A stretch of DNA of 64,000 nucleotides from contig RGVZ01000001.1 in assembly GCA_010029825.1 (NCBI GenBank), forward strand, positions 3,030 to 67,029, in the 5' to 3' direction. Position 1 is the stretch's first letter; each line of letters begins with the position of its first letter. The notes below the pieces were generated by a model. It ran no database searches and was not told the origin of the DNA. It worked only from the letters and a program-made list of their open reading frames with translations. This DNA comes from a bacterium (GTDB lineage Bacteria > Bdellovibrionota_B > Oligoflexia > Oligoflexales > RGVZ01). Both the position numbers and the translations under genes were made by a program. Shown here piece by piece: positions 14,216 to 37,987 of the stretch.

Positions 14216-14773
14216 ATGTCAGCTGATGTGATCAACCAGTGCAAACAGGCGATGGACAAGCGTATCAAGGGTTTCGAGAATGAGTTGAAGCTCGTCCGCA
14301 CGGGGCGCGCTTCCATCACCATCCTCGATCCTGTTCGTGTCGATTACTACGGGACGCCGACCCCGTTGAACCAGGTCGCGACGCTCACGACGCCAGATGC
14401 GCGGACGATCGTGATCGCTCCGTTCGAAAAACGCCTCATCCAGGATATCGAACGCTCCATCCAGATAGCGGACATTGGTGTCCAGCCGACCAACGATGGC
14501 AACGTCGTTCGCTTGCCGTTTCCCGCACTGACGGAAGAACGCCGCAAGGACATCGTGAAGAACCTCAAGAAAGTCGCCGAGGAATCGCGGGTCAGTATCC
14601 GCAACATCCGCCGCGACATCAACGAGGACATCAAGAAGAAAGAAAAGAACAAGGAAGTCAGCGAGGACGACAGCCGCAAGTTGCAGGCAGACGTCCAGAA
14701 ACTCACCGACCAGTACATCAAGTTGGTCGACGACAAGTTGGCCGCCAAAGAAAAAGAAGTGATGACGATTTGA
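14216..14773 (+). CDS. frr: ribosome recycling factor
   Basis: Contains 'MDKRIKGFENELKLVRTGRASITILD...'. Confidence 0.95.
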   Translation: MSADVINQCKQAMDKRIKGFENELKLVRTGRASITILDPVRVDYYGTPTPLNQVATLTTPDARTIVIAPFEKRLIQDIERSIQIADIGVQPTNDGNVVRLPFPALTEERRKDIVKNLKKVAEESRVSIRNIRRDINEDIKKKEKNKEVSEDDSRKLQADVQKLTDQYIKLVDDKLAAKEKEVMTI

Positions 14774-14968
14774 GAGAGGATTCTTCGGCCTGCGGCCTCA
14801 GAATGACGAGTCGGGCCCAGAGTGACGGGGAGAGGATTCTTCGGCCTGCGGCCTCAGAATGACGAGTCGGGCCCAGAGTGACGAGTCGGGCCCAGAGTGA
14901 CGAGGACGTCCCCGTCATTCTGAGCCCGAAACCCGTCATTCTGAGCCCGAAGGGCGAAGAATCCTTTC
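14774..14968. repeat. hairpin-repeat array, locus 1: two 56-bp tandem units, extra 19-bp sub-repeats and inverted copies
   Basis: 'GAGAGGA' unit starts fall at 14774 and 14830. Forward hairpin core is ATTCT-TC-GGCC-TGC-GGCC-TC-AGAAT (14780-14804). Reverse-orientation core is ATTCT-GA-GCCC-GAA-GGGC-GA-AGAAT (14938-14962). The array begins 1 nt after the frr stop. Confidence 0.85.
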
Positions 14969-14996
14969 TTCACCCCGCGCGTTTCACGCATTCAGA

Positions 14997-15518
14997 TCAG
15001 ATGTTGAACGAAGCCCCGATCGTCGCGAAGACGCTGTCCCTTTGCAGGGGCGCGTTGAACTTCCCGCCATCCGGCAGGCGCGACGCGTAACCGGTGCCAA
15101 TCAAAGCGCCGAAGTTTTCAGTCACCGGCACCACGAAATTCAGGCGACCCATGACAGTCCACCAGGCCCTCGCGTTGGCCAGCGTTGAGGTCGACTCAGC
15201 GTCGATCGTGCCACGAAGCAACGAGAGTCCGCCTGCCACCGAAAGTTTTCCGGGGATGATCTCGCGGTTGGCGTGCCAGTGGCCGCCCGCCTCGACTGCC
15301 CGGGCGTCGGGTTTGCTCAAGGAACCCTCCGAGTTCTGGTACTCGCGGATCCCCGCGGTCAGGCCGACGCTGGTTCCGGATCCGAGTGCGTATCCGGCGT
15401 CGATCGTTGTCGTCACCTGGTCTTGGCCCAGCAGTGAGACATCCAAGGTTGCGGCGACTGCCGGTGAGGCGGTTGTCGCGAGAATCGTGGCCCCGAAGAT
15501 GACATTTGCGATTTTCAT
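14997..15518 (-). CDS. small outer-membrane beta-barrel protein (OmpW/OmpA-barrel-like)
   Basis: The ATG at 15518 follows AAGGGAG. Has a signal peptide (MKIANVIFGATILATTASPAVA) and an alternating Gly/aromatic beta-strand pattern, about 173 aa in total. Confidence 0.6.
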   Translation of the reverse strand: MKIANVIFGATILATTASPAVAATLDVSLLGQDQVTTTIDAGYALGSGTSVGLTAGIREYQNSEGSLSKPDARAVEAGGHWHANREIIPGKLSVAGGLSLLRGTIDAESTSTLANARAWWTVMGRLNFVVPVTENFGALIGTGYASRLPDGGKFNAPLQRDSVFATIGASFNI

Positions 15519-15553
15519 GTGAACTCCCTTCTTTGTGTTACGTTTGAATATGT

Positions 15554-16588
15554 TCAAGGAAAAATAGCGTGACAAGCAATTCGCGCGAAGTGGATGCCGC
15601 CTCCCGCGCCCATGGCCGCACCAGCCGCTGTGCCCCAAGGTCCGCCCTTCGAGCCTTGAGCGGCCCCGTAAGCTGCCACACCGGCAGCCACCATTGGCAC
15701 GCAGTTGTCGAAATCAGACACCATTCCTGAGCCTTTAGCCGAGACGGCGATTGAGTTTGCCGTGTTCATGAGAGCTTTCTCCATGGCTGGCAACGGGTTC
15801 AGATCGGACAGGTCGGGAAGTTTCGGCATTTCGATTCTGGGCGGTTTCCAGCCACCCCAGGCCTCGAAGGAGACATTCGCTTGCGACAGTCTCGTACGCA
15901 GGCGCAGGTCCGTGTCGAGAGGCATGGCAAGGTTCATTTTCGCGTCATGGGTGGTGCCCAGATGGATGCCCACGGCCTTTTTGCCAATGGCCACCACGGA
16001 TCCACTCATGCCTTTGATCGTGTCGGCAGTGTACTCGATCAGTTGGTGCGACTTGTTGATCTGTGCGGCACCGAAACTCGTGGTGACGGGTTGACCAACA
16101 CCCCCGGTGCCGACGACCCGGACTTCCACGAGGGATTCACCGGATTTCGGAACCCCAGCGGAGATTTCGTAGTGGCTGTCAAATGGCACGGATGTGATCA
16201 GGCCGACGACATCTGTGGATTCGTCAATGAACGAGATCGTCGCGATGCGGGATTCTTTTCCGGCATTGGTGACAAAACGCGCGTCGATCAACTTCTCAAA
16301 TGCGGAATTAACGCAATGGGCCGTCGTCAGGACGCGGTCAGTGTCGTAAAGGAAGCCGTTGCAGGACGGGCCGCCAGGAATCTGGACCAGGCCGGTCGCT
16401 TGCATGTCAAAATCGTCTGCCTTGAATACGCGTTGATCTTCTCCGACGATCGATGCTTGTTGCGCCCCGGTTCCCCGGAGACAGGCGGTCATTGTCATCG
16501 GGATCATCAGGGTCATCAGCAGTTTCGTCAACGGAGCCCATCCCCGGTGTCGACATGCCCGAACGATCACTGTTTTCTTGCCAACCAT
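15554..16588 (-). CDS. trypsin-like (S1 family) serine protease lipoprotein with Gly/Ala-rich glycine-zipper C-terminus
   Basis: The ATG at 16588 follows GAGAGGTG. Has a lipobox-like 'MTMTAC'. His motif 'VLTTAHCV', Asp candidate 'STDVVGL' and Ser motif 'KGMSGSVV' are present. The tail reads 'VAAGVAAYGAAQGSKGGPWGTAAGAAMGAGGG'. Confidence 0.72.
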   Translation of the reverse strand: MVGKKTVIVRACRHRGWAPLTKLLMTLMIPMTMTACLRGTGAQQASIVGEDQRVFKADDFDMQATGLVQIPGGPSCNGFLYDTDRVLTTAHCVNSAFEKLIDARFVTNAGKESRIATISFIDESTDVVGLITSVPFDSHYEISAGVPKSGESLVEVRVVGTGGVGQPVTTSFGAAQINKSHQLIEYTADTIKGMSGSVVAIGKKAVGIHLGTTHDAKMNLAMPLDTDLRLRTRLSQANVSFEAWGGWKPPRIEMPKLPDLSDLNPLPAMEKALMNTANSIAVSAKGSGMVSDFDNCVPMVAAGVAAYGAAQGSKGGPWGTAAGAAMGAGGGIHFARIACHAIFP

Positions 16589-16636
16589 TCTGCACCTCTC
16601 TTTGTTAAGCCCGTTCAATTGGGCGCAGATGCGTAT

Positions 16637-16653
16637 GAGCAACCGGCGTGCCG
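16637..16653 (-). promoter_or_regulatory. sigma-54 (-24/-12) promoter upstream of the protease gene
   Basis: The minus strand reads cGGCACGccggTTGCTc, with GG-N10-GC spacing exact. The -12 element lies about 50 nt upstream of ATG 16588. Confidence 0.6.
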
Positions 16654-16791
16654 CGGACGAGCTTGCCAAAGAGAATATTTAGTTAAGTGATTTCAGTATG
16701 TTGGCTTGATTGACGTCTGAAGTGCCGGGGTCCTGGTCGATCGCTGGACCGGGGTCTGGCCGCCCGTGGCCCGAAGATGCGGCCAAGGGAA

Positions 16792-16947
16792 GAGAGGATC
16801 CTTCCTCTTCGCTGCGCTCAGAGTCAGGATGACGGGGGAGAAGATCCTTCGCTCCGCTCAGGATGACGGGGCTCAGGATGACGGGGGAGAGGATCCTTCC
16901 TCTTCGCTGCGCTCAGAGTCAGGATGACGGGGCTCAGGATGACGGGG
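16792..16947. repeat. hairpin-repeat array, locus 2 (about 95-bp unit duplicated, three full hairpin cores)
   Basis: 'GAGAGGATCCTTCCTCTTCGCTGCGCTCAGAGTCAGGATGACGGGG' occurs at 16792 and 16887. The variant 'GAGAAGATCCTTCGCTCCGCTCAGGATGACGGGG' is at 16838, and 'CTCAGGATGACGGGG' appears twice. The array ends exactly at the stop codon of the sigma-54 activator. Confidence 0.85.
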
Positions 16948-18117
16948 TCAGAGTTCCTGAGCCGGGGCGTTCAGCGGGGCGAGGCCGCGCTTCTTGATGC
17001 GCTCGACCAGGGTCGTGCGGTTGAGCCCCAGTAATTTCGCCGCCTGGTTCTTGTTGTGTCCCGTGCGTTCGAGGGCCTGCAGGATCATTGAGTTCTCGAG
17101 GTCCTCAATGAACTTGATAAGGTCAATCCCTTCCCTCGGGAGCTCGCCAAAGCTTGCCGGTACGACCGGCTTTGGGGCCTCGACCGGGCGAACGGCGAGC
17201 GGCATCGTCGCGTTGGACACCACTTGCGGGATCACGCAGGCGGGCGCGGCATGGTTCAATTCGGGGGGCAGGTCGTCGCGCGAAATTTCGCCGCCGCCTT
17301 TCAGGACGACCAGGCGCTCGATCATGTTCTGCAACTGGCGGACGTTGCCAGGCCATTCGAAAGCGCACAGCACCTGCATGGCTTCTTCGCCGAGGCTCGA
17401 GAATGTCTCGCAACCGTGCATGCGATTGGAGAGGTCGAGGAAATGATCGACCAGTTCCGGAATGTCCTCATTGCGCTCGCGCAGGGCCGGCAGGGTCACC
17501 GGGAGGACGTTCAGCCGGTAGAACAGGTCAAGCCGGAATGTCCCGGCCTTGACGGCCCTCTCAAGGTCGATATTGGTGGCGGCGACAATGCGGATGTCGG
17601 CGTCGCGGCTCTCGTTGCCACCCAGCGGGGTGAACTTCTTCTCTTGCAGGACACGGAGGAGCTTCGCCTGGAGCGCCAGTGGCATGTCGCCGATCTCGTC
17701 CAGGAACAGCGTTCCGCCTGAGGCCGCGTCAAAACGCCCAAGGCGCCGACGGTCGGCGCCTGTGAAGGCGCCCCTCTCGTGACCGAACAATTCGGACTCC
17801 AGGAGGTTCTCCGGGATCGCCGAGCAGTTGATTGCAATAAAGGGATGGCTGGAACGGGGCGAAAGCCGGTGAATGGCCGACGCGATGAGTTCCTTGCCAG
17901 TGCCCGACTCCCCGGAGATCAAGACGGCGCTTTCTGAATGGGCGATCTTGGCCACGGTCTCAAGGGCCTTGAGCATGGCCGGACTGCGTCCAATGATCTC
18001 GGGGAAGAGGGTTTCCCAGTCCCCTGTTTGAAGTCCTGGTCGGCCCTTGCCCCGGAAGAGCATGGACTGGGCGCGGGAAGAATCCTCTCCTGGGCGTCGA
18101 ATCTCAGGGGTATTCAT
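16948..18117 (-). CDS. sigma-54-dependent transcriptional activator (bEBP) lacking an N-terminal sensory domain
   Basis: Has Walker A 'GESGTGKE', 'ESELFGHERGAFTGA' and a C-terminal Fis-type HTH 'QAAKLLGLNRTTLVERIKK'. Only about 55 aa precede the AAA+ core. The ORF can extend by at most 18 codons, to 18171. Confidence 0.9.
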   Translation of the reverse strand: MNTPEIRRPGEDSSRAQSMLFRGKGRPGLQTGDWETLFPEIIGRSPAMLKALETVAKIAHSESAVLISGESGTGKELIASAIHRLSPRSSHPFIAINCSAIPENLLESELFGHERGAFTGADRRRLGRFDAASGGTLFLDEIGDMPLALQAKLLRVLQEKKFTPLGGNESRDADIRIVAATNIDLERAVKAGTFRLDLFYRLNVLPVTLPALRERNEDIPELVDHFLDLSNRMHGCETFSSLGEEAMQVLCAFEWPGNVRQLQNMIERLVVLKGGGEISRDDLPPELNHAAPACVIPQVVSNATMPLAVRPVEAPKPVVPASFGELPREGIDLIKFIEDLENSMILQALERTGHNKNQAAKLLGLNRTTLVERIKKRGLAPLNAPAQEL

Positions 18118-18186
18118 AGGATGAAACGGCCTCCAAAAAAGGGCGTAACTATCTGACCCCGCCCGATGCAAGGATCACCGGCGACT

Positions 18187-18300
18187 CCGGCAAATTCCCT
18201 GGTGACCCGGCGGCCCAAGCCCCATCTGATCTCTGTGTTGTTCGCGTAAATACAGAATAACAAAATTTGCCGGCCCCGTGCAAACTTCGCCCGGCAAATT
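18187..18300. promoter_or_regulatory. 10-bp repeated motif CCGGCAAATT (two direct copies and one inverted) in a divergent intergenic region
   Basis: CCGGCAAATT lies at 18187-18196 and 18291-18300. Its reverse complement AATTTGCCGG lies at 18264-18273. The last two form a perfect 10-bp inverted repeat with a 17-nt spacer. Confidence 0.35.
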
Positions 18301-18386
18301 CTTCCACCTCAAGGGTTTCACGGATTTTGTCCCTGTGCTGGAACAGGGGCAAGACTTCATGATATGACAAGCGAAAACGGGGTTTG

Positions 18387-19508
18387 ATGGTGAAAGTTGC
18401 ATTTGTCCATGACTGGCTGGTGACTTGCCGTGGCGGCGAAAAAGTGCTTGAGGCTTTGTTGCCCCTTTTTCCGGACGCGCCGGTCTTCACCCTCTTCTAC
18501 GATCCGGCCGCGATGCCGGAAAGCATTCGCTCAAGAAACGTTTTTTTTCCTGCCGGCCTGAACCGTCTGCGCCCTTTGCGAAAGGCGTTGCTTCCGTTCT
18601 TGCCAGCAGCGATCGAGTCGCTGCCGCTGTTTGAATTCGACTTGTTGATCAGCACATCTTCTTGTGTCGCGAAAGGAGCTCTGCCAGGACCTCTCGCGAG
18701 TCACTTGTGTTACATCCACTCGCCGATGCGTTACGTCTGGGACCAACGCGACGAGTATGTTGATCGCCTGCCGCGCATTCCAGGATTGAGGACAGTGATC
18801 AACCGTTTGTCCGCGGACCTTCGCCAGTGGGATGTTGTGTCCGCGAAACGGGTCGACCAATTTGTCGCCAACTCCAGATTCGTCCAGCAACGTGTACGTC
18901 GTTTCTACGGCCGCGACGCGGCGGTGGTTTATCCACCAGTCGATGTGGAGCGGTTCGTGAAGCAGGCTCAGGGGCGTCGTTACCAAACTGGTGCCAGGCA
19001 GGGCGATTACTATCTCGTGGCGGGCGCGGCGGTCTCCTACAAGAGGTTTGACTTGGCGGTGGACGCTTGCCGCAAGCTCGGGCGCAAACTGGTGATCGCA
19101 GGAGACGGTCCTGAATGGCAATCGTTGCGAAAACGCGCTGGCGCCGGTGTTGAATTTGTCCGCAGGCCCGATGACGCAACCTGGGAATCGTTGATGGGAG
19201 GCGCTCGCGCGCTTCTATTCCCGGGCGTCGAGGATTTTGGCATCACCGGAGTCGAGGCCCTGGCGGCAGGAACGCCAGTGATCGCCCAACGCGCGGGCGG
19301 GGCGTTGGATTTCATTGAGGAAGGATCCAGCGGCCTTTACTTTGATCGTCCGGAAGTCGACGATGTGGTCACCGCGATCAAGGGTTTCGAGGCGACCTTC
19401 GAGGTCCGCCCGGAGGTTCTGGAGTCACAGGCACGGAAATTCTCGACGGCCTCCTTCCAGAATGCGATGAAACAGGAAATTGACCAGTTGATGCGAAGCC
19501 GGCCATGA
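18387..19508 (+). CDS. glycosyltransferase family 4 (GT-B fold)
   Basis: Contains 'VKVAFVHDWLVTCRGGEKVLEALLPLFPDAPVFTL' and the C-terminal 'EDFGITGVEALAAGTPVIA'. Confidence 0.85.
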   Translation: MVKVAFVHDWLVTCRGGEKVLEALLPLFPDAPVFTLFYDPAAMPESIRSRNVFFPAGLNRLRPLRKALLPFLPAAIESLPLFEFDLLISTSSCVAKGALPGPLASHLCYIHSPMRYVWDQRDEYVDRLPRIPGLRTVINRLSADLRQWDVVSAKRVDQFVANSRFVQQRVRRFYGRDAAVVYPPVDVERFVKQAQGRRYQTGARQGDYYLVAGAAVSYKRFDLAVDACRKLGRKLVIAGDGPEWQSLRKRAGAGVEFVRRPDDATWESLMGGARALLFPGVEDFGITGVEALAAGTPVIAQRAGGALDFIEEGSSGLYFDRPEVDDVVTAIKGFEATFEVRPEVLESQARKFSTASFQNAMKQEIDQLMRSRP

Positions 19509-20863
19509 ACCAGAAGCAAAAACAACTCGTCCGGATCGTCAGGTTGACTTTCGACATGGCCGCCGTGGTCATGGCGTGGATTGCGGCCTACCAATTGAGA
19601 TTTGCCCTGATCGAAACGCCCAAAGGTGTTCCGCCGTTCGGTTTGTATTTGAAGCTGGTGCCGTTCATTGTGGTGATCTGGGCAGCCATTTTTTTCGCCA
19701 GTGGTTTTTACCGGCGTTCGCAAGCGCGCCGTTCCGCGGTGCTGGAGGCCCTCGACATCATCCCTTCATGTGGGCTGGCAACGCTGGCTCTCGTGGCGTT
19801 TACCTACTTCTACGAGGAATATCGTTATTCGCGGATCGTGATGATCATGTTCGCGGCATTGCAGCCGGTGTTCCTGATCACGGCGCGGTCCGCGATGCGA
19901 AAGTTGTTCCGGTGGTACCGCCGCAAGAGTCCGGCGCGCAATGTTTTGCTGGTCACGACCAAGGGCCTGGAGCGGCAGGCAATCGCCGCCACGGATGAGA
20001 TGGACCTGGTGCGGTCGCGGGTGGTGGGGACGGTTTTCGTGGATGAGGCCGCTCCGGCGGACTGGTTGGAACTGGTGGCACGCATGGAAGTTCACGCGAT
20101 GATCGTGGCCTTGCCGTACCGGTTGTTGGGGGTCCTCGAGGACCAGCTCGCGGGCATTGCCGACCAGGTACCGGACATCCGTATCATTCCTGACATGAGC
20201 CGGTTCACGCGGTTTGCCTCGGGGATAGCGCTGGTGGACGGGCGGCCTGTGATCAGCATCAACGAATCGCCGTTGGCAGGCATGGGACGGTTGATCAAGC
20301 GCTCGGTCGATATCCTCGGGGCTCTGGTGGGGTTGGTCTTGTTTGCCCCGGTGATGGCTGTCATCGCGATCCTCGTTCCATTGTCCTCGCCTGGGCCGGT
20401 CCTGTACCGGCAAGAACGGATGGGACTTGACGGGAATAGCTTCTGGATCCTGAAATTCCGGTCAATGCCGGTTGATGCCGAGAGGAAGACGGGCGCCGTC
20501 TGGGCGAAGCCAACCGACAACCGGGCGACTTGGCTGGGGCGCCTGCTGCGTGGTAGCAGTCTGGATGAGCTGCCTCAGTTCTGGAACGTCCTCCGCGGTG
20601 ATATGAGCTTGGTCGGGCCAAGGCCGGAACGTCCCGTATTTGTTGATCAATTCAGGCGTGAGATCCCCGGGTACATGTTGCGGCACAAGGTTAAGGCCGG
20701 AATTACCGGGTGGGCCCAGGTGAATGGCTGGCGGGGCGACACGAGCCTGGAAAAGCGCATCGAATGCGACCTGTTTTACATCCAGAACTGGAGTGTCTGG
20801 CTGGACCTGAGGATCATTTTCCTTACTGTTTTCAGGGGCTTCCTGAGCAAAAACGCCTACTGA
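19505..20863 (+). CDS. polyprenyl glycosylphosphotransferase (WcaJ/WbaP-like sugar transferase)
   Basis: ATGA overlap with the GT4 gene. Has N-terminal TM segments. Bac_transf motifs 'SLDELPQFWNVLRGDMSLVGPRPERP' and 'GITGWAQVNG' are present. Confidence 0.9.
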   Translation: MNQKQKQLVRIVRLTFDMAAVVMAWIAAYQLRFALIETPKGVPPFGLYLKLVPFIVVIWAAIFFASGFYRRSQARRSAVLEALDIIPSCGLATLALVAFTYFYEEYRYSRIVMIMFAALQPVFLITARSAMRKLFRWYRRKSPARNVLLVTTKGLERQAIAATDEMDLVRSRVVGTVFVDEAAPADWLELVARMEVHAMIVALPYRLLGVLEDQLAGIADQVPDIRIIPDMSRFTRFASGIALVDGRPVISINESPLAGMGRLIKRSVDILGALVGLVLFAPVMAVIAILVPLSSPGPVLYRQERMGLDGNSFWILKFRSMPVDAERKTGAVWAKPTDNRATWLGRLLRGSSLDELPQFWNVLRGDMSLVGPRPERPVFVDQFRREIPGYMLRHKVKAGITGWAQVNGWRGDTSLEKRIECDLFYIQNWSVWLDLRIIFLTVFRGFLSKNAY

Positions 20864-20875
20864 ATCAATTTTAAT

Positions 20876-20900
20876 GATTCTATGTAATTCTAATAGAATC
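20876..20900 (+). terminator. AT-rich hairpin after the sugar transferase gene (possible terminator)
   Basis: GATTCTAT (20876-20883) pairs with ATAGAATC (20893-20900) around a 9-nt loop. There is no clear T-tract. Confidence 0.3.
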
Positions 20901-20902
20901 TG

Positions 20903-20930
20903 TTGACTTATTAAAAACAATATTATAACT
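20903..20930 (+). promoter_or_regulatory. candidate sigma-70 promoter in the AT-rich gap
   Basis: TTGACT lies at 20903-20908, followed 15-16 nt later by TATAAC/ATAACT (20924-20930). Confidence 0.35.
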
Positions 20931-21024
20931 TAACTATTGTCAGGGGTCAGTCTACTTGGTGGCTGACTCCCGACGATCAGGCTGTTTTCTGCTGTCGCTG
21001 TTGTTTTTTGCTGAAGCTGTCGTT

Positions 21025-21606
21025 GTGAGGTTGCCTGTGCTGAGTACCCGTGTCTCGATCCGACTCGCCTTTGTCGCGTTCCTGCTCACGTCCTGCGGAA
21101 TGCCGACCAATGAAAAAAGTGTGAAGAACTTTGTCCTGTCTTGCATGAACTGCGACAGCAGCCTGCATGATGGTTTCAGCCGGATTGTGCACCAATACAA
21201 CTCCGAGGCCGGGTTTGAGGCGTTGCAGTACACCACCAATTCCGAGGACGCGAACAGTCCGGTCTATCTGACCCAGGGGCTTAACATGCGCGAGGGCAAA
21301 GTGGGGTGGGGGCAATGGCTGTCCGAGACCGAGGAGCGTCGCAGTTACTTGCCGCAGCCGAAGGCCCTTCGCACGGTCAGTTATTCGATGCGCCTTGAAC
21401 TCGACAAGGACTTCATGCAGACGCGGATCAATTCCATCCGCGAGAGTGACAAGACGGATGTTCGCAAGCTGTTCTATCACGAGACCGGCCATGGACTGCA
21501 GATGGCGCATCATCCGGATCCGGGCAACGTGATGTACTTCGATATCAGTGGGGACAAGGACTTCAACTTGTACTTCAACGATGTTCGCGCGTTTTTTGGC
21601 AAGTAG
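21025..21606 (+). CDS. matrixin-like (metzincin) zinc metalloprotease lipoprotein
   Basis: 'HETGHGLQMAHHPDPGNVMYF' aligns with the MMP motif HExGHxLGLxHSxDPxALMxP. The lipobox is 'FLLTSC'. The start is ambiguous (GTG 21025, TTG 21031 or GTG 21037). Confidence 0.68.
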   Translation: MRLPVLSTRVSIRLAFVAFLLTSCGMPTNEKSVKNFVLSCMNCDSSLHDGFSRIVHQYNSEAGFEALQYTTNSEDANSPVYLTQGLNMREGKVGWGQWLSETEERRSYLPQPKALRTVSYSMRLELDKDFMQTRINSIRESDKTDVRKLFYHETGHGLQMAHHPDPGNVMYFDISGDKDFNLYFNDVRAFFGK

Positions 21607-21609
21607 CGT

Positions 21610-21757
21610 GGGAGAGGATCCTTCGCCTTCGGCTCAGGATGACGGGGGGAGAGGATCCTTCGCCTTCGGCTCAGGATGACGGGGGGAGAGGATCCTTCCC
21701 CTTCGGCTCAGGATGACGGGGGGAGAGGATCCTTCGCCTTCGGCTCAGGATGACGGT
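21610..21757. repeat. hairpin-repeat array, locus 3: four 37-bp tandem units
   Basis: 'GAGAGGATCCTTCGCCTTCGGCTCAGGATGACGGGGG' starts at 21612, 21649, 21686 and 21723 (period 37). The hairpin core is ATCCT-TC-GCC-TTC-GGC-TC-AGGAT, e.g. 21618-21640. It is followed by a GACGGTTGATGT doublet. Confidence 0.9.
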
Positions 21758-21790
21758 TGATGTGACGGTTGATGTTTGCCTGGAGTTCAG

Positions 21791-23242
21791 ATGATGTTGT
21801 TGAAACAAAAAAAAGCCGGCGCCGCGCGCGTATTGATCCTCGTGGCCCTGGCCACGGTCAACCCGGCCTGCGGAAGTTCCGGCGGGGCAGGCAGTCCGCC
21901 CGCGGACACGGTCAATGATAACCAGGCCATCCAGCCCGTGGTGGAAGTCCCGGTGATGCGATCCATCCCGGCTTCGCACGGGATTTCGATGCAGCTCTTG
22001 TCAGAGCGGGCTGATCGCATCAATCCGAAACTTGTATACGCCTTTCAGGGCAAGGGCACAGCGTTGACCTGGGATATCGGTGTGACAAGAGCCGCTTACG
22101 AGCGGATCCCGATGTTGCGCGGTGAGGCCAACGCACAGGGCATGGCTGCCGGTGATGTGGTCTTGACCGGGAACAGCAGCGGGTCTGTCCTGGCCGCGTG
22201 GTTCAGTTGTCGCGGGATCACCGCGGATTCCATCAAAGGCGCGGAAACAATCATGAGCGGATTTCCCGCGCAGCTGGTGAAAGAAGACCCCGCCGCGAAA
22301 TTCCAGGAAGTCCTGGGCGCCATCAACAGTGGCAAGGAGTTCGGTTCGCCGACATCAGACATCTTGCCCCTTGTGGACGCGATCGTCGGGAATGGCGCAT
22401 GTGTTCCGCGCTTGCCGACTGTAATCCTGGCGTCAAACCAGGACATCAATGACAACCGCCGCTGGCTCTTCACGGAGGGACGGCGCTCGCGCAGTTTCGA
22501 CATAACGGATTTCTCGTATTCGCAGCGTACGGGTGATTTCAGCCTTGAGAAGGAAAAAGTCGGAAAGATCTGCACCTACTTCGCTGACCCGGTGATGTTC
22601 CGCTATTTGTCTGAAAACATGACCGGGGAAGAAAGGCTGTGCGACATTCGCGTCATGGAAAACGCGGATGACATGAGGACAGCGGTTCTGGCCAGCATCT
22701 CCGAGCCGACCTATTTCGTGCCGGTCGAGGAGAAGGCCGAATCAAAGCTCGTGCGTTTCGACGCGCCCGGGGCCATCAAGAGTCACCGGTTTTACAATGG
22801 TGGTTTCTCGATGCCGGGCATCGTCCAGGACATCAAGCGCCTTTTCCCGGCGGCACGTGCCATGGGGACGGGGCGTTGGACTTACAACCAGGCCGAGGTT
22901 GCCGTCATGTACAGCTGGTACGACGTCAACTTGAATAGCCTTCAGGAACAATCGCGCTGGTGGATGGACCTTGAGCCGGTACCTACCGACACCCAGCGTT
23001 CAAGGTTGCTGGCGCGTCCGGCAGGTTTACAAGGGGCCGATCTCGCCGCGCGTTACCAGGAAGAGATCAACCTTGGGTACCAGCGGGCAACGGCCTGCCT
23101 GCAGCCCGGTAAAGCCTGCCTGTCGCCGCGGACGTCGATCTTCGGGCGCGACCCGAACAAGCCGGCGTTCACGAGACCTGCCGGGCAACCCGGCGGTGCC
23201 GAGATCCCAACCCGTCAGGGGCTGGACATGTTCCTTCAATAA
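21791..23242 (+). CDS. patatin-like phospholipase-domain lipoprotein (Asn at the expected catalytic Asp)
   Basis: The ATG at 21791 follows TGGAG. The lipobox is 'TVNPAC'. Motifs present are 'FQGKGTAL' (oxyanion-like), 'GNSSG' (GxSxG), 'ASISEP' (ASxxxP) and 'YNGGF' in place of DGG. Confidence 0.6.
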   Translation: MMLLKQKKAGAARVLILVALATVNPACGSSGGAGSPPADTVNDNQAIQPVVEVPVMRSIPASHGISMQLLSERADRINPKLVYAFQGKGTALTWDIGVTRAAYERIPMLRGEANAQGMAAGDVVLTGNSSGSVLAAWFSCRGITADSIKGAETIMSGFPAQLVKEDPAAKFQEVLGAINSGKEFGSPTSDILPLVDAIVGNGACVPRLPTVILASNQDINDNRRWLFTEGRRSRSFDITDFSYSQRTGDFSLEKEKVGKICTYFADPVMFRYLSENMTGEERLCDIRVMENADDMRTAVLASISEPTYFVPVEEKAESKLVRFDAPGAIKSHRFYNGGFSMPGIVQDIKRLFPAARAMGTGRWTYNQAEVAVMYSWYDVNLNSLQEQSRWWMDLEPVPTDTQRSRLLARPAGLQGADLAARYQEEINLGYQRATACLQPGKACLSPRTSIFGRDPNKPAFTRPAGQPGGAEIPTRQGLDMFLQ

Positions 23243-33544: not shown

Positions 33545-33670
<126 letters not shown>

Positions 33671-36602: not shown

Positions 36603-36893
36603 TTACTTGTGCTCGCCGCCAGCGTGAGCAGCGCCGTCCATTGTGCCGTGAGCAGCGTCGTCCATTGCGCCGTGGGCAGCAGCTTCAGCGGCTTCTTTCT
36701 TGGCACCCTTCTTGGCAGCCTTCTTGGCAGCCTTCTTGGCAGCCTTCTTGGCCTTCTTCGGAGCTTCGGTGGTGGTTTCGGTGGTGGTTTCGGTGTGAGA
36801 AACCGGAGCTTCAGCAGCCGGAGCAGCAGCTTCGTTTGCGAAAGCCGGAGCAGAGAGACCGATCAGAGCAGCAGCGAGAATAACCTTTTTCAT
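36603..36893 (-). CDS. small secreted repeat protein (Thr/Glu, Lys/Ala and His-containing repeats)
   Basis: The ATG at 36893 follows AAGGAG. Has a signal peptide (MKKVILAAALIGLSAPAFA). The mature part reads 'TETTTETTTE', '(AKKA)n' and 'AAHGAMDDAAHGTMDGAAHAGGEHK'. Confidence 0.65.
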   Translation of the reverse strand: MKKVILAAALIGLSAPAFANEAAAPAAEAPVSHTETTTETTTEAPKKAKKAAKKAAKKAAKKGAKKEAAEAAAHGAMDDAAHGTMDGAAHAGGEHK

Positions 36894-37066
36894 GACATCA
36901 CTCCTTGACTTGATTTTCGCCGCCACATCAAACGTTCCCGAACACCGGGGGGCAGACATAGGCAGCAAATCGTTGAAATAACCTTTTATGACTTAACCAA
37001 GATCCGTAAAAACCGTCAATAGGCGGAAACTGCCCGCCTTCTCATCACCCCGGGTAAATCTTGTCG

Positions 37067-37113: not shown

Positions 37114-37203
37114 GGAGAGATGGCCGAGTGGTTGAAGGCGCACGCCTGGAACGCGTGTAGGGTGTAACAGCCCTCGTGGGTTCGAATCCCACTCTCTCCG
37201 CCA
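37114..37203 (+). tRNA. tRNA-Ser (anticodon GGA), CCA encoded
   Basis: Cloverleaf read by hand. The acceptor GGAGAGA pairs with TCTCTCC. The anticodon stem is CACGC/GCGTG with loop CTGGAAC. Has a long variable arm (AGGG...CCCT) and a T-arm GTGGG-TTCGAAT-CCCAC. Confidence 0.9.
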
Positions 37204-37212
37204 CCCCAACCG

Positions 37213-37987
37213 CTAACGGCGCCGGGAACCCGACTCAAGTGAGTCGATCCGGCGCCGGTTTTTTTTGCTTATTTCCGTGTGGGGATTTTGCGCGTGCTGC
37301 TTTAAATATCCCGGCAGCGCGACGGTATCTTCGCCGTGCGCCAGTGCCTTTGCCTCCAAAAGAGCCGCTCTCAGGGTGCTGGCCCTGTTGTCGTTCACGG
37401 TCACTTTTTTCCGCAAATAGCGAGCCCAGTAAAATTCTTGAAAAGGTTGGTCGAGGTCCTCGAAACATCCTTCCTCGCGCAAGAGCCAGGCAAGGCTGCG
37501 GTGGCGGTCATCCTTCAGGTCCCGTAGCCTGAGCGGCAAGTCCGCCGGCTGGATAGGTTTGTCGGCGGAATCGTACAGCCACACCCAGTTGCGTTCCCTC
37601 ATGATGCGCCAGAACTCTTCCTCCCCCGATGACGACAGGTCGGCCAGGACCTTGGCTGGGGCCTTGGCCTCCATGATCCCGCGTGACGCGAGGTCCAGGA
37701 GCGCCCATGACACGTGATGTCCATCGACCAGGTGCAGTTTTCCCCCGGGGCCGTGCACGACGGAAACGGGATGGTCCTCAAGATATTCTCGCCGTTCGAG
37801 AGCCGTCATCTGTTCTGCGGATCCTGGATTCGGCGAGTCCGATCGATTGTTGGCTGGGAAGCACTGAGCCTAGGTCCATCCATGTCGAGCGCGGCGCGGC
37901 GCGGCTCGCGACTGGGATGGACGCGATCGCGCAGACCATCAAAATGCGGCGGAATCGATCCCGCCATCCTGTCTGGATTTGGCCCAT
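37213..37987 (-). pseudogene. ParB-like nuclease domain protein (ParBc_2-like), interrupted by a frameshift
   Basis: ORF 37778..37987 carries a signal peptide plus 'VLPSQQSIGLAESRIRR' (cf. the L-R-P-T-Q-x-x-x-G motif). ORF 37213..37809, in another frame, continues 'ALERREYLEDHPVSVVHGPGGKLHLVDGHHVSWAL...FWRIM...DDRHRSLAWLLR...FQEFYWARYLR'. A stop (TAG) lies 20 codons upstream of the ATG in the main frame. Confidence 0.55.
37217..37266 (+). terminator. rho-independent terminator after tRNA-Ser
   Basis: The outer stem CGGCGCCGG (37217-37225) pairs with CCGGCGCCG (37249-37257). An inner stem CGACTCA/TGAGTCG is present, and T8 follows. Confidence 0.7.

Follow-up and report, generated by a model that had tools for sequence, protein, structure and literature searches.

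The stretch of DNA analysed here, referred to as the window, comprises 64,000 nucleotides of contig RGVZ01000001.1 (assembly GCA_010029825.1, positions 3,030 to 67,029 of the forward strand) from a bacterium of the order Oligoflexales, and carries three arrays of a short hairpin-forming repeat, at 14774-14968 (locus 1), 16792-16947 (locus 2) and 21610-21757 (locus 3). This repeat is probably a variant of the repetitive extragenic palindromes (REPs) that bear an unpaired CGTC tag. A previous sequence-only reading of the window had placed the arrays at these same positions, with about 10 units in them and none in the other 57 kb, and both statements are borne out by a covariance model built from 18 units of related loci which, run unfiltered over the 64 kb, finds 10 full units (three, three and four at the successive loci, with E-values from 3e-16 to 3e-9) and two half units of 15 nt. 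Outside the arrays, the sole match of this model with E<1 lies at 37801-37827 (E=0.058); since it has no hairpin and is placed at a stop/start overlap, it was judged a chance match and rejected as a unit. The core TCAGRATGACG has 13 exact copies in the window, every one of them within the arrays, and with one mismatch allowed it gives 15 matches against 2.8 expected by chance, a number reached by none of 100 shuffles.

Every array begins 0-5 nt from a stop codon, and the flanking genes are those already recognised from the sequence. At locus 1, the gene frr, which closes a tsf-pyrH-frr row, ends with a TGA at 14771-14773, and the first unit starts at 14774. At locus 2, the end of the array (16947) is flush with the stop codon (16948-16950, TCA on the plus strand) of a minus-strand gene for a sigma-54 activator (bacterial enhancer-binding protein, bEBP), the mRNA of which carries the CGTC strand of the entire array. 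At locus 3, a stop codon with 21606 as its last base closes a small open reading frame (ORF), and the array begins at 21610, with 3 nt in between; this ORF, taken for a metalloprotease before, is Matrixin-like with a sub-threshold match. The same array ends 33 nt before the next ATG (21791), and the ORF downstream of it, of 483-488 aa, has no Pfam match and is of unknown function.

The unit is 28-46 nt long in the family, and its hairpin has an outer stem of 5 bp, which a 2x2 TC/TC internal loop separates from a variable inner stem that carries a triloop. The form in which the unit had first been written, GAGAGG-ATCCT-TC-stem-loop-stem-TC-AGGAT-GACGGGG, conveys this structure correctly, but the recognisable motifs (the CGTC tag, the tandem G·A steps, and the GNA loop) stand on the complementary strand, which reads CCGTC-AT(Y)CT-GA-stem-GNA-stem-GA-AG(R)AT-CC, with stems of 2-5 G/C pairs, and which we refer to as the CGTC strand.

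The three loci differ in their layout, and repeat finders together with TRF recover each of the organisations previously described. Locus 1 combines a 56-bp tandem with inverted copies, the arms of 38-39 nt being 87% complementary. Its first full unit, F1 (14774-14810, plus strand; GAGAGG-ATTCT-TC-GGCC-TGC-GGCC-TC-AGAAT-GACGAG; 44 bits and E 7e-11 with the covariance model), is followed on the same strand by a degenerate 3' half unit with a 19-nt period, TCGGGCCCAGAGTGACGGG (14811-14829), by a second full unit, F2 (14830-14866), found by both repeat finder and covariance model, which has the same sequence as F1 and completes the 56-bp tandem, and by two further 19-nt degenerate half units, GAGTCGGGCCCAGAGTGAC (14867-14904), recognised by the repeat period. 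On the minus strand, there follow a solo half unit (14910-14930), which reads CCCCGTCATTCTGAGCCCGAA on the plus strand and is made up of the CGTC tag, the first arm, and the loop, and a reverse full unit (14931-14968; 47 bits), which reads CCCGTC-ATTCT-GA-GCCC-GAA-GGGC-GA-AGAAT-CC on the plus strand. This reverse unit, together with F1 and F2, produces a composite palindrome of about 200 nt between convergent genes, with a minimum free energy (MFE) of -123.5 kcal/mol and a z-score of -10.5.

Locus 2 is built of a 95-bp duplication with 15-nt sub-repeats, and all its parts lie on the plus strand. It starts with a nested unit, U1 (16792-16837), with the sequence ATCCT-TC-[CTCT-TC-GC-TGC-GC-TC-AGAG]-TC-AGGAT and two serial internal loops, and continues with a minimal unit, U2 (16838-16871; GAGAAG-ATCCT-TC-GC-TCC-GC-TC-AGGAT-GACGGGG; 39 bits), whose core reads GCGGAGC on the opposite strand, and with a solo 3' half unit, CTCAGGATGACGGGG (16872-16886), detected by repeat finders and covariance model alike. 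A second copy of U1 (16887-16932), arising with the 95-bp duplication and not present in the relatives L001 and L180, and another solo 3' half unit (16933-16947), which directly adjoins the stop codon of the activator gene, complete the array. Locus 3 consists of four head-to-tail units of 37 nt, GGGAGAGG-ATCCT-TC-GCC-TTC-GGC-TC-AGGAT-GACGGG (21610-21757, plus strand; 57-62 bits), the third of which has CCC in place of GCC, and of a tail (21751-21775, plus strand), also found in L001, where a 12-nt duplication, TGACGGTTGATG twice, re-uses the TGACGG end of the last unit. Apart from these arrays, an isolated exact 5' half, GAGAGGATTCTTC, matching GGAGAGGATCCTTCCC in 15 of 16 positions and with no 3' partner, lies at 18077-18089 on the minus strand, either 14-26 nt upstream of the sigma-54 activator's start as called in L001 or within a longer ORF (16948-18171); with a chance of about 0.004 for an exact 13-mer, it is probably a relic half unit in a 5' leader.

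The hairpin itself is best judged from copies outside the window. Compensatory changes between ATCCT/AGGAT and ATTCT/AGAAT, as well as in the inner stems, are present in the window as had been noticed; the independent events within the window are few, but copies from elsewhere give them strong confirmation, with the stem pairing preserved. Most of the collected copies were fetched by a pattern that fixes the conserved positions. At the Y/R positions of the arms, the genome matches listed have C-G 80 times, T-A 77 times, T-G once, and C-A never. With the arm triplets of the outer stem left free, 270 of 295 matches are Watson-Crick complementary, and these represent seven triplet types (CCT/AGG 125, TCT/AGA 118, CCC/GGG 12, TCC/GGA 8, and others). 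Likewise, the 163 distinct sequences of the inner region form on average 2.29 nested pairs from their ends, against 0.41 when shuffled. When 148 distinct cross-phylum copies are aligned to the model, 99.2% of the cells pair (89.7% in shuffled alignments), with double changes at four pairs, and the covariation score is 0.232 against 0.092; none of 500 shuffles reaches it, and controls slid out of register collapse. This alignment was fitted to the model, so the free counts of Y/R positions, triplets, and inner stems weigh more. Taken together, compensatory change across hundreds of copies shows that the predicted hairpin has been kept. Its unpaired tag, 2x2 internal loop, and triloop are nearly invariant as well, in copies partly fetched by a fixed pattern. 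All four of the units folded have the hairpin as their MFE structure on the CGTC strand, against two of four on the other strand, and in the three units where both strands form the hairpin, the fold of the CGTC strand is more stable by about 1.5 kcal/mol.

The family extends far beyond the window. A degenerate unit pattern, run against viral contigs and species-representative genomes, matched 29 stretches from viral contigs, and the unit core was found in at least 118 genome stretches, megabase contigs included. Among the matches listed, these cover some 15 phyla, which according to the record titles include Acidobacteriota, Verrucomicrobiota, Gemmatimonadota, Omnitrophota, Patescibacteria (with Gracilibacteria), Bacillota, Melainabacteria, Bacteroidota, Chloroflexota, Campylobacterota, Bdellovibrionota, Desulfobacterota, Binatota, Fibrobacterota, and several classes of Pseudomonadota. 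In collections of cultured organisms the family is rare, with a single plasmid match, in a megaplasmid of Granulicella tundricola, and GenBank phages gave no unit match. The window itself derives from a freshwater bacterium that has not been cultured. Closer to it, a metagenome scan with the flanks GAGAGG...GGGG resulted in 73 loci (574 kb, GC about 0.58) with 114 clusters of units, referred to here as the lineage; they come mostly from a few samples and were chosen for carrying the repeat, so that their density of units is biased. L180 is a 96%-identical orthologue of locus 2. The comparison with Rfam, proposed along with the first description of the arrays, gave no family match at the gathering threshold and nothing meaningful at E<=10 on 14700-21900, and a full-text literature search with the unit sequence in both orientations retrieved only unrelated primers, with no REP descriptions found for Acidobacteria or Verrucomicrobia.

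Position and orientation of the units relative to genes are far from random in this wider sample. In the other phyla, among the matches listed, 40 units lying at most 60 nt after the stop codon of an ORF of at least 200 aa have the CGTC strand in the sense of the gene and 7 are reversed, several of these 7 being the second member of an inverted pair. The lineage contexts divide into 31 convergent, 23 co-directional, and 5 divergent ones; the nearest unit has its core at a median of 24 nt from the stop codon, and CGTC-sense prevails by 17:6 among the co-directional contexts. The RefSeq-annotated case of Granulicella tundricola agrees with a CGTC-sense orientation after the stop codon.

We consider it probable that the element is of the REP type, that it represents a variant of the CGTC-tagged REP superfamily, and that its hairpin acts at the 3' end of the upstream transcript. 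The assignment to REPs follows from its being a short imperfect palindrome, multi-copy and extragenic, located at gene 3' ends. Established roles of REPs are the protection of mRNA 3' ends, termination, and protein binding. Accordingly to what REPs do in E. coli, the CGTC-strand hairpin at the 3' end of an upstream transcript would block 3'-to-5' exonucleases, and would end or pause transcription where a canonical terminator is missing. A hairpin at most 15 nt from the stop codon might also interfere with terminating ribosomes; REPs placed within some 15 nt of a stop codon reportedly affect translation (Liang, Rudd & Deutscher 2015). The roles as terminator, mRNA stabiliser, or protein-binding site, which had been put forward from the window only, we infer from the position and orientation statistics together with the lack of canonical terminators, none of which was found by a terminator scan in the three intergenic regions and arrays, where the tails read CCTCTC or GACGGGG. 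On the CGTC strand, d(CCGTCATCCTGAGCGAAGCGAAGGATCC) would be expected to be more stable than its complement, with sheared G·A pairs. Arrays and half units, in turn, would grow and shrink through slipped-strand mispairing or unequal recombination at the hairpins, while dispersal to new sites would involve an enzyme acting in trans.

Several observations weigh against this transcript-level reading. Folded as RNA, single units reach -7 to -14.5 kcal/mol, which is no better than shuffles (z from -1.3 to +1.1), so the proposed check by folding energy lends them no support and the case for the hairpin rests on covariation; a single-unit hairpin would be a poor exonuclease block. The invariance of tag and internal loop is partly imposed by the search, since the fetch pattern fixes those positions, and the count of G·T against C·A mismatches as a sign of the active strand (10 vs 5) is not significant. 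The units resemble Rho-independent terminators in being G+C-rich hairpins directly after a stop codon with no other terminator detected, but, unlike these, they have no T/U tract in either orientation, and their stems are short and interrupted. The orientation statistics, moreover, use crude longest-ORF gene calls, and within the window only locus 2 shows the usual CGTC-sense orientation: the units of locus 3 point the other way with respect to the gene upstream, and at locus 1 the unit nearest to each of the convergent genes is reversed. Locus 3 is probably intercistronic, given the mere 33 nt to the next start codon, and REPs also lie inside E. coli operons. A further bias concerns the GGAT strand, which coincides with the G-rich strand in 42 of the 55 clusters of the lineage (L154-L226) and in 61 of 99 elsewhere (L036-L153). 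This bias is independent of that of transcription and competes with it; where genes lie on the C-rich strand the two add up (20:1), and where they lie on the G-rich strand the two offset each other (15:20). The skew bias points to a DNA-level or replication-linked process. Finally, the one lake metatranscriptome that covers the region offers three tiny array contigs, for which any copy may be the source.

Among the alternatives, the one that survives best, although we regard it as unlikely, is that of a selfish or neutral repeat without host function, whose insertions are tolerated after stop codons and whose arrays are slippage-driven variable-number tandem repeats (VNTRs). The arrays are indeed hypervariable between near-identical relatives. 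Locus 2 exists as [U2][half] in L180, as [U1][half][U2][half] in L001, and as [U1][U2][half][U1][half] in the window; locus 1 has three layouts among the window, L001, and L003, with three 19-nt degenerate halves in L001; and locus 3 has four units in the window and two in L001. Between contigs that are 95-100% identical, about 30 of 33 comparisons of orthologous arrays reveal a difference, in some cases in the variants or the order of the units, and one orthologous pair measures 119 nt and more than 527 nt, respectively. None of the 33 comparisons yielded an empty-site allele. Half units are frequent, as are nested forms, the hairpin of a single unit is weak, both orientations occur in the window, and CGTC REPs are, in the literature text covered here, without a demonstrated function. 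All this would suit a neutral repeat. However, the unpaired tag, the GA/GA steps, and the GNA loop are near-invariant over about 15 phyla among the matches listed, and near-invariant unpaired positions call for purifying selection or a conserved recognition partner; tolerance alone also leaves the 40:7 orientation bias and the depletion in divergent regions unexplained.

Two sets of orthologous arrays illustrate how such changes look. In L197 (1732-1851), a composite of about 62 nt, made of one unit and a GC-rich spacer hairpin, is single, whereas in L215, with flanks 98-99.5% identical, it is expanded to more than 527 nt. In the orthologues L172, L209, and L218, two arrays of equal length have the GTA and GCA loop variants swapped between neighbouring units, suggesting that units undergo exchange or conversion with each other instead of simple slippage.

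A somewhat less likely alternative to the transcript-level reading is an element acting at the level of DNA, where a single-stranded mini-hairpin or cruciform would be bound or processed by a conserved protein of replication, repair, or the nucleoid, such as a primase, a topoisomerase, or an HUH nuclease, and where the orientation relative to transcription would be secondary, through exposure of the non-template strand. GCGNAGC with GNA loops is a DNA motif of extraordinary stability, found at primase-dependent origins (PMC13037366), and the GC-skew orientation bias (42:13 in the lineage, 61:38 in the other genomes) fits such a view. So does the excess of solo halves made of tag and first arm over the opposite halves (70:26 for the other phyla, 98:38 for the lineage), which suggests strand-specific DNA processing, and the invariant pan-bacterial core suggests a universal partner. 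Yet the skew bias places the weaker GGAT strand, and not the mini-hairpin strand, on the lagging-strand template, the tight placement at stop codons and the gene-relative orientation are more simply explained at the transcript level, and no candidate protein was found in the analysis; local GC skew in loci of 5-15 kb is, besides, a rough proxy for replication direction.

With about the same reserve, one may think of a pan-bacterial mobile or recruited mini-hairpin that would be recognised, at its invariant unpaired positions (CCGTC tag, tandem G·A pairs, CTG step, and C-GNA-G loop), by a single conserved enzyme or factor for single-stranded nucleic acid. If this were true, it would be the first REP family with a partner common to the bacterial domain and would give a handle on the spread of transposase-less CGTC REPs, while both orientation biases and the excess of solo halves would be footprints of an enzyme acting on single-stranded DNA.

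That the arrays encode a structured small RNA, such as a ToxI-like repeat antitoxin or a riboregulator of the downstream gene, is highly improbable: locus 3, with its four 37-nt direct repeats just upstream of the 483-488-aa ORF, invites such a comparison, but the unit recurs in either orientation at unrelated loci that number in the hundreds and belong to many phyla, has no Rfam match, varies freely in number between relatives, and lies next to a gene that is not toxin-like, having no Pfam match. The ToxI-like reading was ruled out by anatomy, and so were those of a MITE, a miniature transposable element with inverted repeats, and of a terminator. A CRISPR array was rejected as well, since the units abut, with 0-6 nt between them, and the Rfam CRISPR models give no match.

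Short-read contigs from lake metagenomes (Logan) end within all three arrays, the contigs of relatives also end in the array at locus 3, and the depth of sequence words at the arrays is 10-20x that of the flanks in lake metagenomes, which indicates that the repeat is multi-copy in the community. Even though contigs break there and unit numbers differ by assembly, an assembly artefact is hardly credible, as assemblies made independently from different samples (L001, L003, and L180) have the repeat at the same three loci, the family occurs in those at least 118 genome stretches with their megabase contigs, and relatives differ in unit variants and not in number alone. Only the exact number of units per array is in doubt, the assemblies of near-identical relatives being different. 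In practical terms, these arrays break short-read assemblies and vary between strains in the manner of VNTRs, and they presumably generate spurious ORFs in databases.

REPs are often linked to REP-associated tyrosine transposases (RAYTs), and the absence of a RAYT gene, which had been noted for the window, is confirmed there and extends to the 574 kb of lineage contigs (motif scan and tblastn). The 1.8 Mb of fetched loci contain no unit-flanked RAYT either, and a single Y1_Tnp gene. This gene, at 3768-4277 of L050 (Acidobacteriales bacterium 59-55), codes for a RAYT/TIRYT-like Y1 transposase (Pfam Y1_Tnp, E 2.5e-7), is separated from one unit of the family by about 540 nt, and is bordered by inverted hairpin repeats of its own (GGGCACGG...CCGTGCC and CCTCAGGGGCTAAAGCCCC). 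With these unrelated terminal repeats, and not being flanked by the unit, it was rejected as the mobiliser.

Other features of the window can be mentioned briefly. The Rfam search locates a bacterial small signal recognition particle RNA (61.9 bits) at 33558-33654 on the minus strand and a tRNA gene at 37114-37200 on the plus strand. Tandem repeats of 12 and 24 nt at 36623-36795 are accounted for by an ORF of 121 aa (36603-36968, minus strand), which has a signal-like N-terminus and encodes AKKA/TTE peptide repeats. The GC skew is positive in each 4-kb bin from 1 to 64000 (0.011 to 0.088), which places the entire window on one replichore, with the plus strand leading-like.

The closest known system is the superfamily of CGTC-tagged REPs of Di Nocera, De Gregorio & Rocco (2013, BMC Genomics 14:522), which includes dRS3 from Neisseria and RPE-4 and RPE-6 from Rickettsia. 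As the text of that survey describes them, these REPs have an unpaired CGTC tag, a stem "almost invariably" starting with A-T and T-A pairs, and a short tail with the consensus CCA; they lie no more than about 20 bp from the 3' end of an ORF, where neighbouring genes converge or run in the same direction, and have no associated transposase gene. The units of the window share this layout to a large extent. They carry the CGTC tag, all full units ending with GACG on the plus reading (in the cross-phylum copies, GAC is invariant and the next G is present in 133 of 150, partly as imposed by the search pattern), and the stem begins and ends with AT, giving the A-T and T-A first pairs, in every unit. 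The unpaired tail starts with CC, which is invariant (GG on the plus reading) in the cross-phylum copies, and the units are multi-copy, intergenic, and close to ORF 3' ends, form sub-families with alternative complementary stem residues, and have no associated transposase.

The differences from the superfamily, as far as its published text defines it, are equally clear. Whereas CGTC REPs have a continuous stem of 8-9 bp, that of the unit is divided into 5 bp, a 2x2 internal loop, and a further 2-5 bp, and reaches 9-12 positions only with the GA/GA pairs included; of 344 matches with complementary arms, 270 have the TC/TC internal loop. In place of a loop of 4-5 nt, there is a triloop, TNC on the plus reading and GNA on the CGTC strand, and the third base of the tail is the A of CCA in the CGTC REP consensus, T in the window (CCTCTC), and variable elsewhere. 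CGTC REPs mostly form head-to-head dimers, with negligible head-to-tail pairs and rare groups, whereas head-to-tail arrays, solo halves, and nested units are common in this family: the lineage has 51 tandem-only, 37 mixed, and 26 single clusters, loci 2 and 3 are purely head-to-tail, and the tags of locus 1 point inward. The survey reports CGTC REPs from 5 phyla, with four families described, and the unit core is far more widely distributed. The search on which the survey is based dropped palindromes with more than one mismatch, and the unit sequence does not occur in its text or supplements, the consensus figures not being covered. Within that limit, the novelty lies in a CGTC REP variant missing from the text and supplements of the survey and in its unusually widespread core. 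Classical perfect-stem CGTC REPs (GATTCCCGC...GCGGGAATGAC, also as an ATTGC/GCAAT variant) occur in the same fetched loci. In L109 (1822-1852), L142, L076, and again L109 (GATTCTGGC...GCCAGAATGAC), the internal loop is replaced by Watson-Crick GA/TC or GG/CC, resulting in a perfect palindrome; from their sequences, such copies look like intermediates between the unit variant and the classical form.

The non-Watson-Crick features of the unit lead to a second comparison, as they match a DNA motif of extraordinary stability. Of the 26 distinct triloops of the lineage, 22 have the form C-GNA-G when read on the CGTC strand, where GCGAAGC and GCGCAGC are the most frequent cores and where the flanking 5'-Y-GA-R steps fit what we take to be tandem sheared G·A pairs. 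We infer that the CGTC-strand hairpin may be stabilised by such tandem sheared pairs and by the C-GNA-G triloop. GCGNAGC is the "mini-hairpin DNA" of Hirao and colleagues, which has a melting temperature of 70-76 C and is formed by GNA loops only, and is known from primase-dependent origins (PMC13037366). Like the mini-hairpin GCGNAGC or GCGNNAGC, unit cores read exactly GCGAAGC, GCGCAGC, GCGTAGC, and GCGGAGC, and longer unit stems retain the C-GNA-G closure. Unlike the family described here, mini-hairpin DNA is a structural motif established with oligonucleotides and a few phage and plasmid origins, and not a repeat family.

The third comparison is with the REPs, bacterial interspersed mosaic elements (BIMEs), and REPINs of E. 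coli and Pseudomonas, which likewise occur in multiple copies, sometimes in clusters, as imperfect palindromes of 20-40 nt at the 3' ends of genes, and whose inverted pairs can form one long hairpin, as at locus 1. Of the REP/BIME-like nature first ascribed to the arrays, the REP part is supported, but BIME-like suits only the inverted copies of locus 1, loci 2 and 3 being head-to-tail; BIMEs alternate, whereas the arrays of the family are mostly head-to-tail, and even locus 1, with both orientations, has no regular alternation. The tag is CGTC and no RAYT was found in the loci searched, in contrast to the GTAG tag and the RAYT of E. coli and Pseudomonas. The arrays within the window are, by themselves, an ordinary REP-type cluster, and it is the family as a whole that deserves moderate interest. 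If a common binding partner constrains its core, the unit would provide an experimental route to what REPs of the CGTC type do and how they move: the REPs of E. coli and Pseudomonas, like most others, are specific to a species or genus and tied in their spread to a cognate RAYT, whereas the core of this unit is common to many phyla, with no linked transposase.

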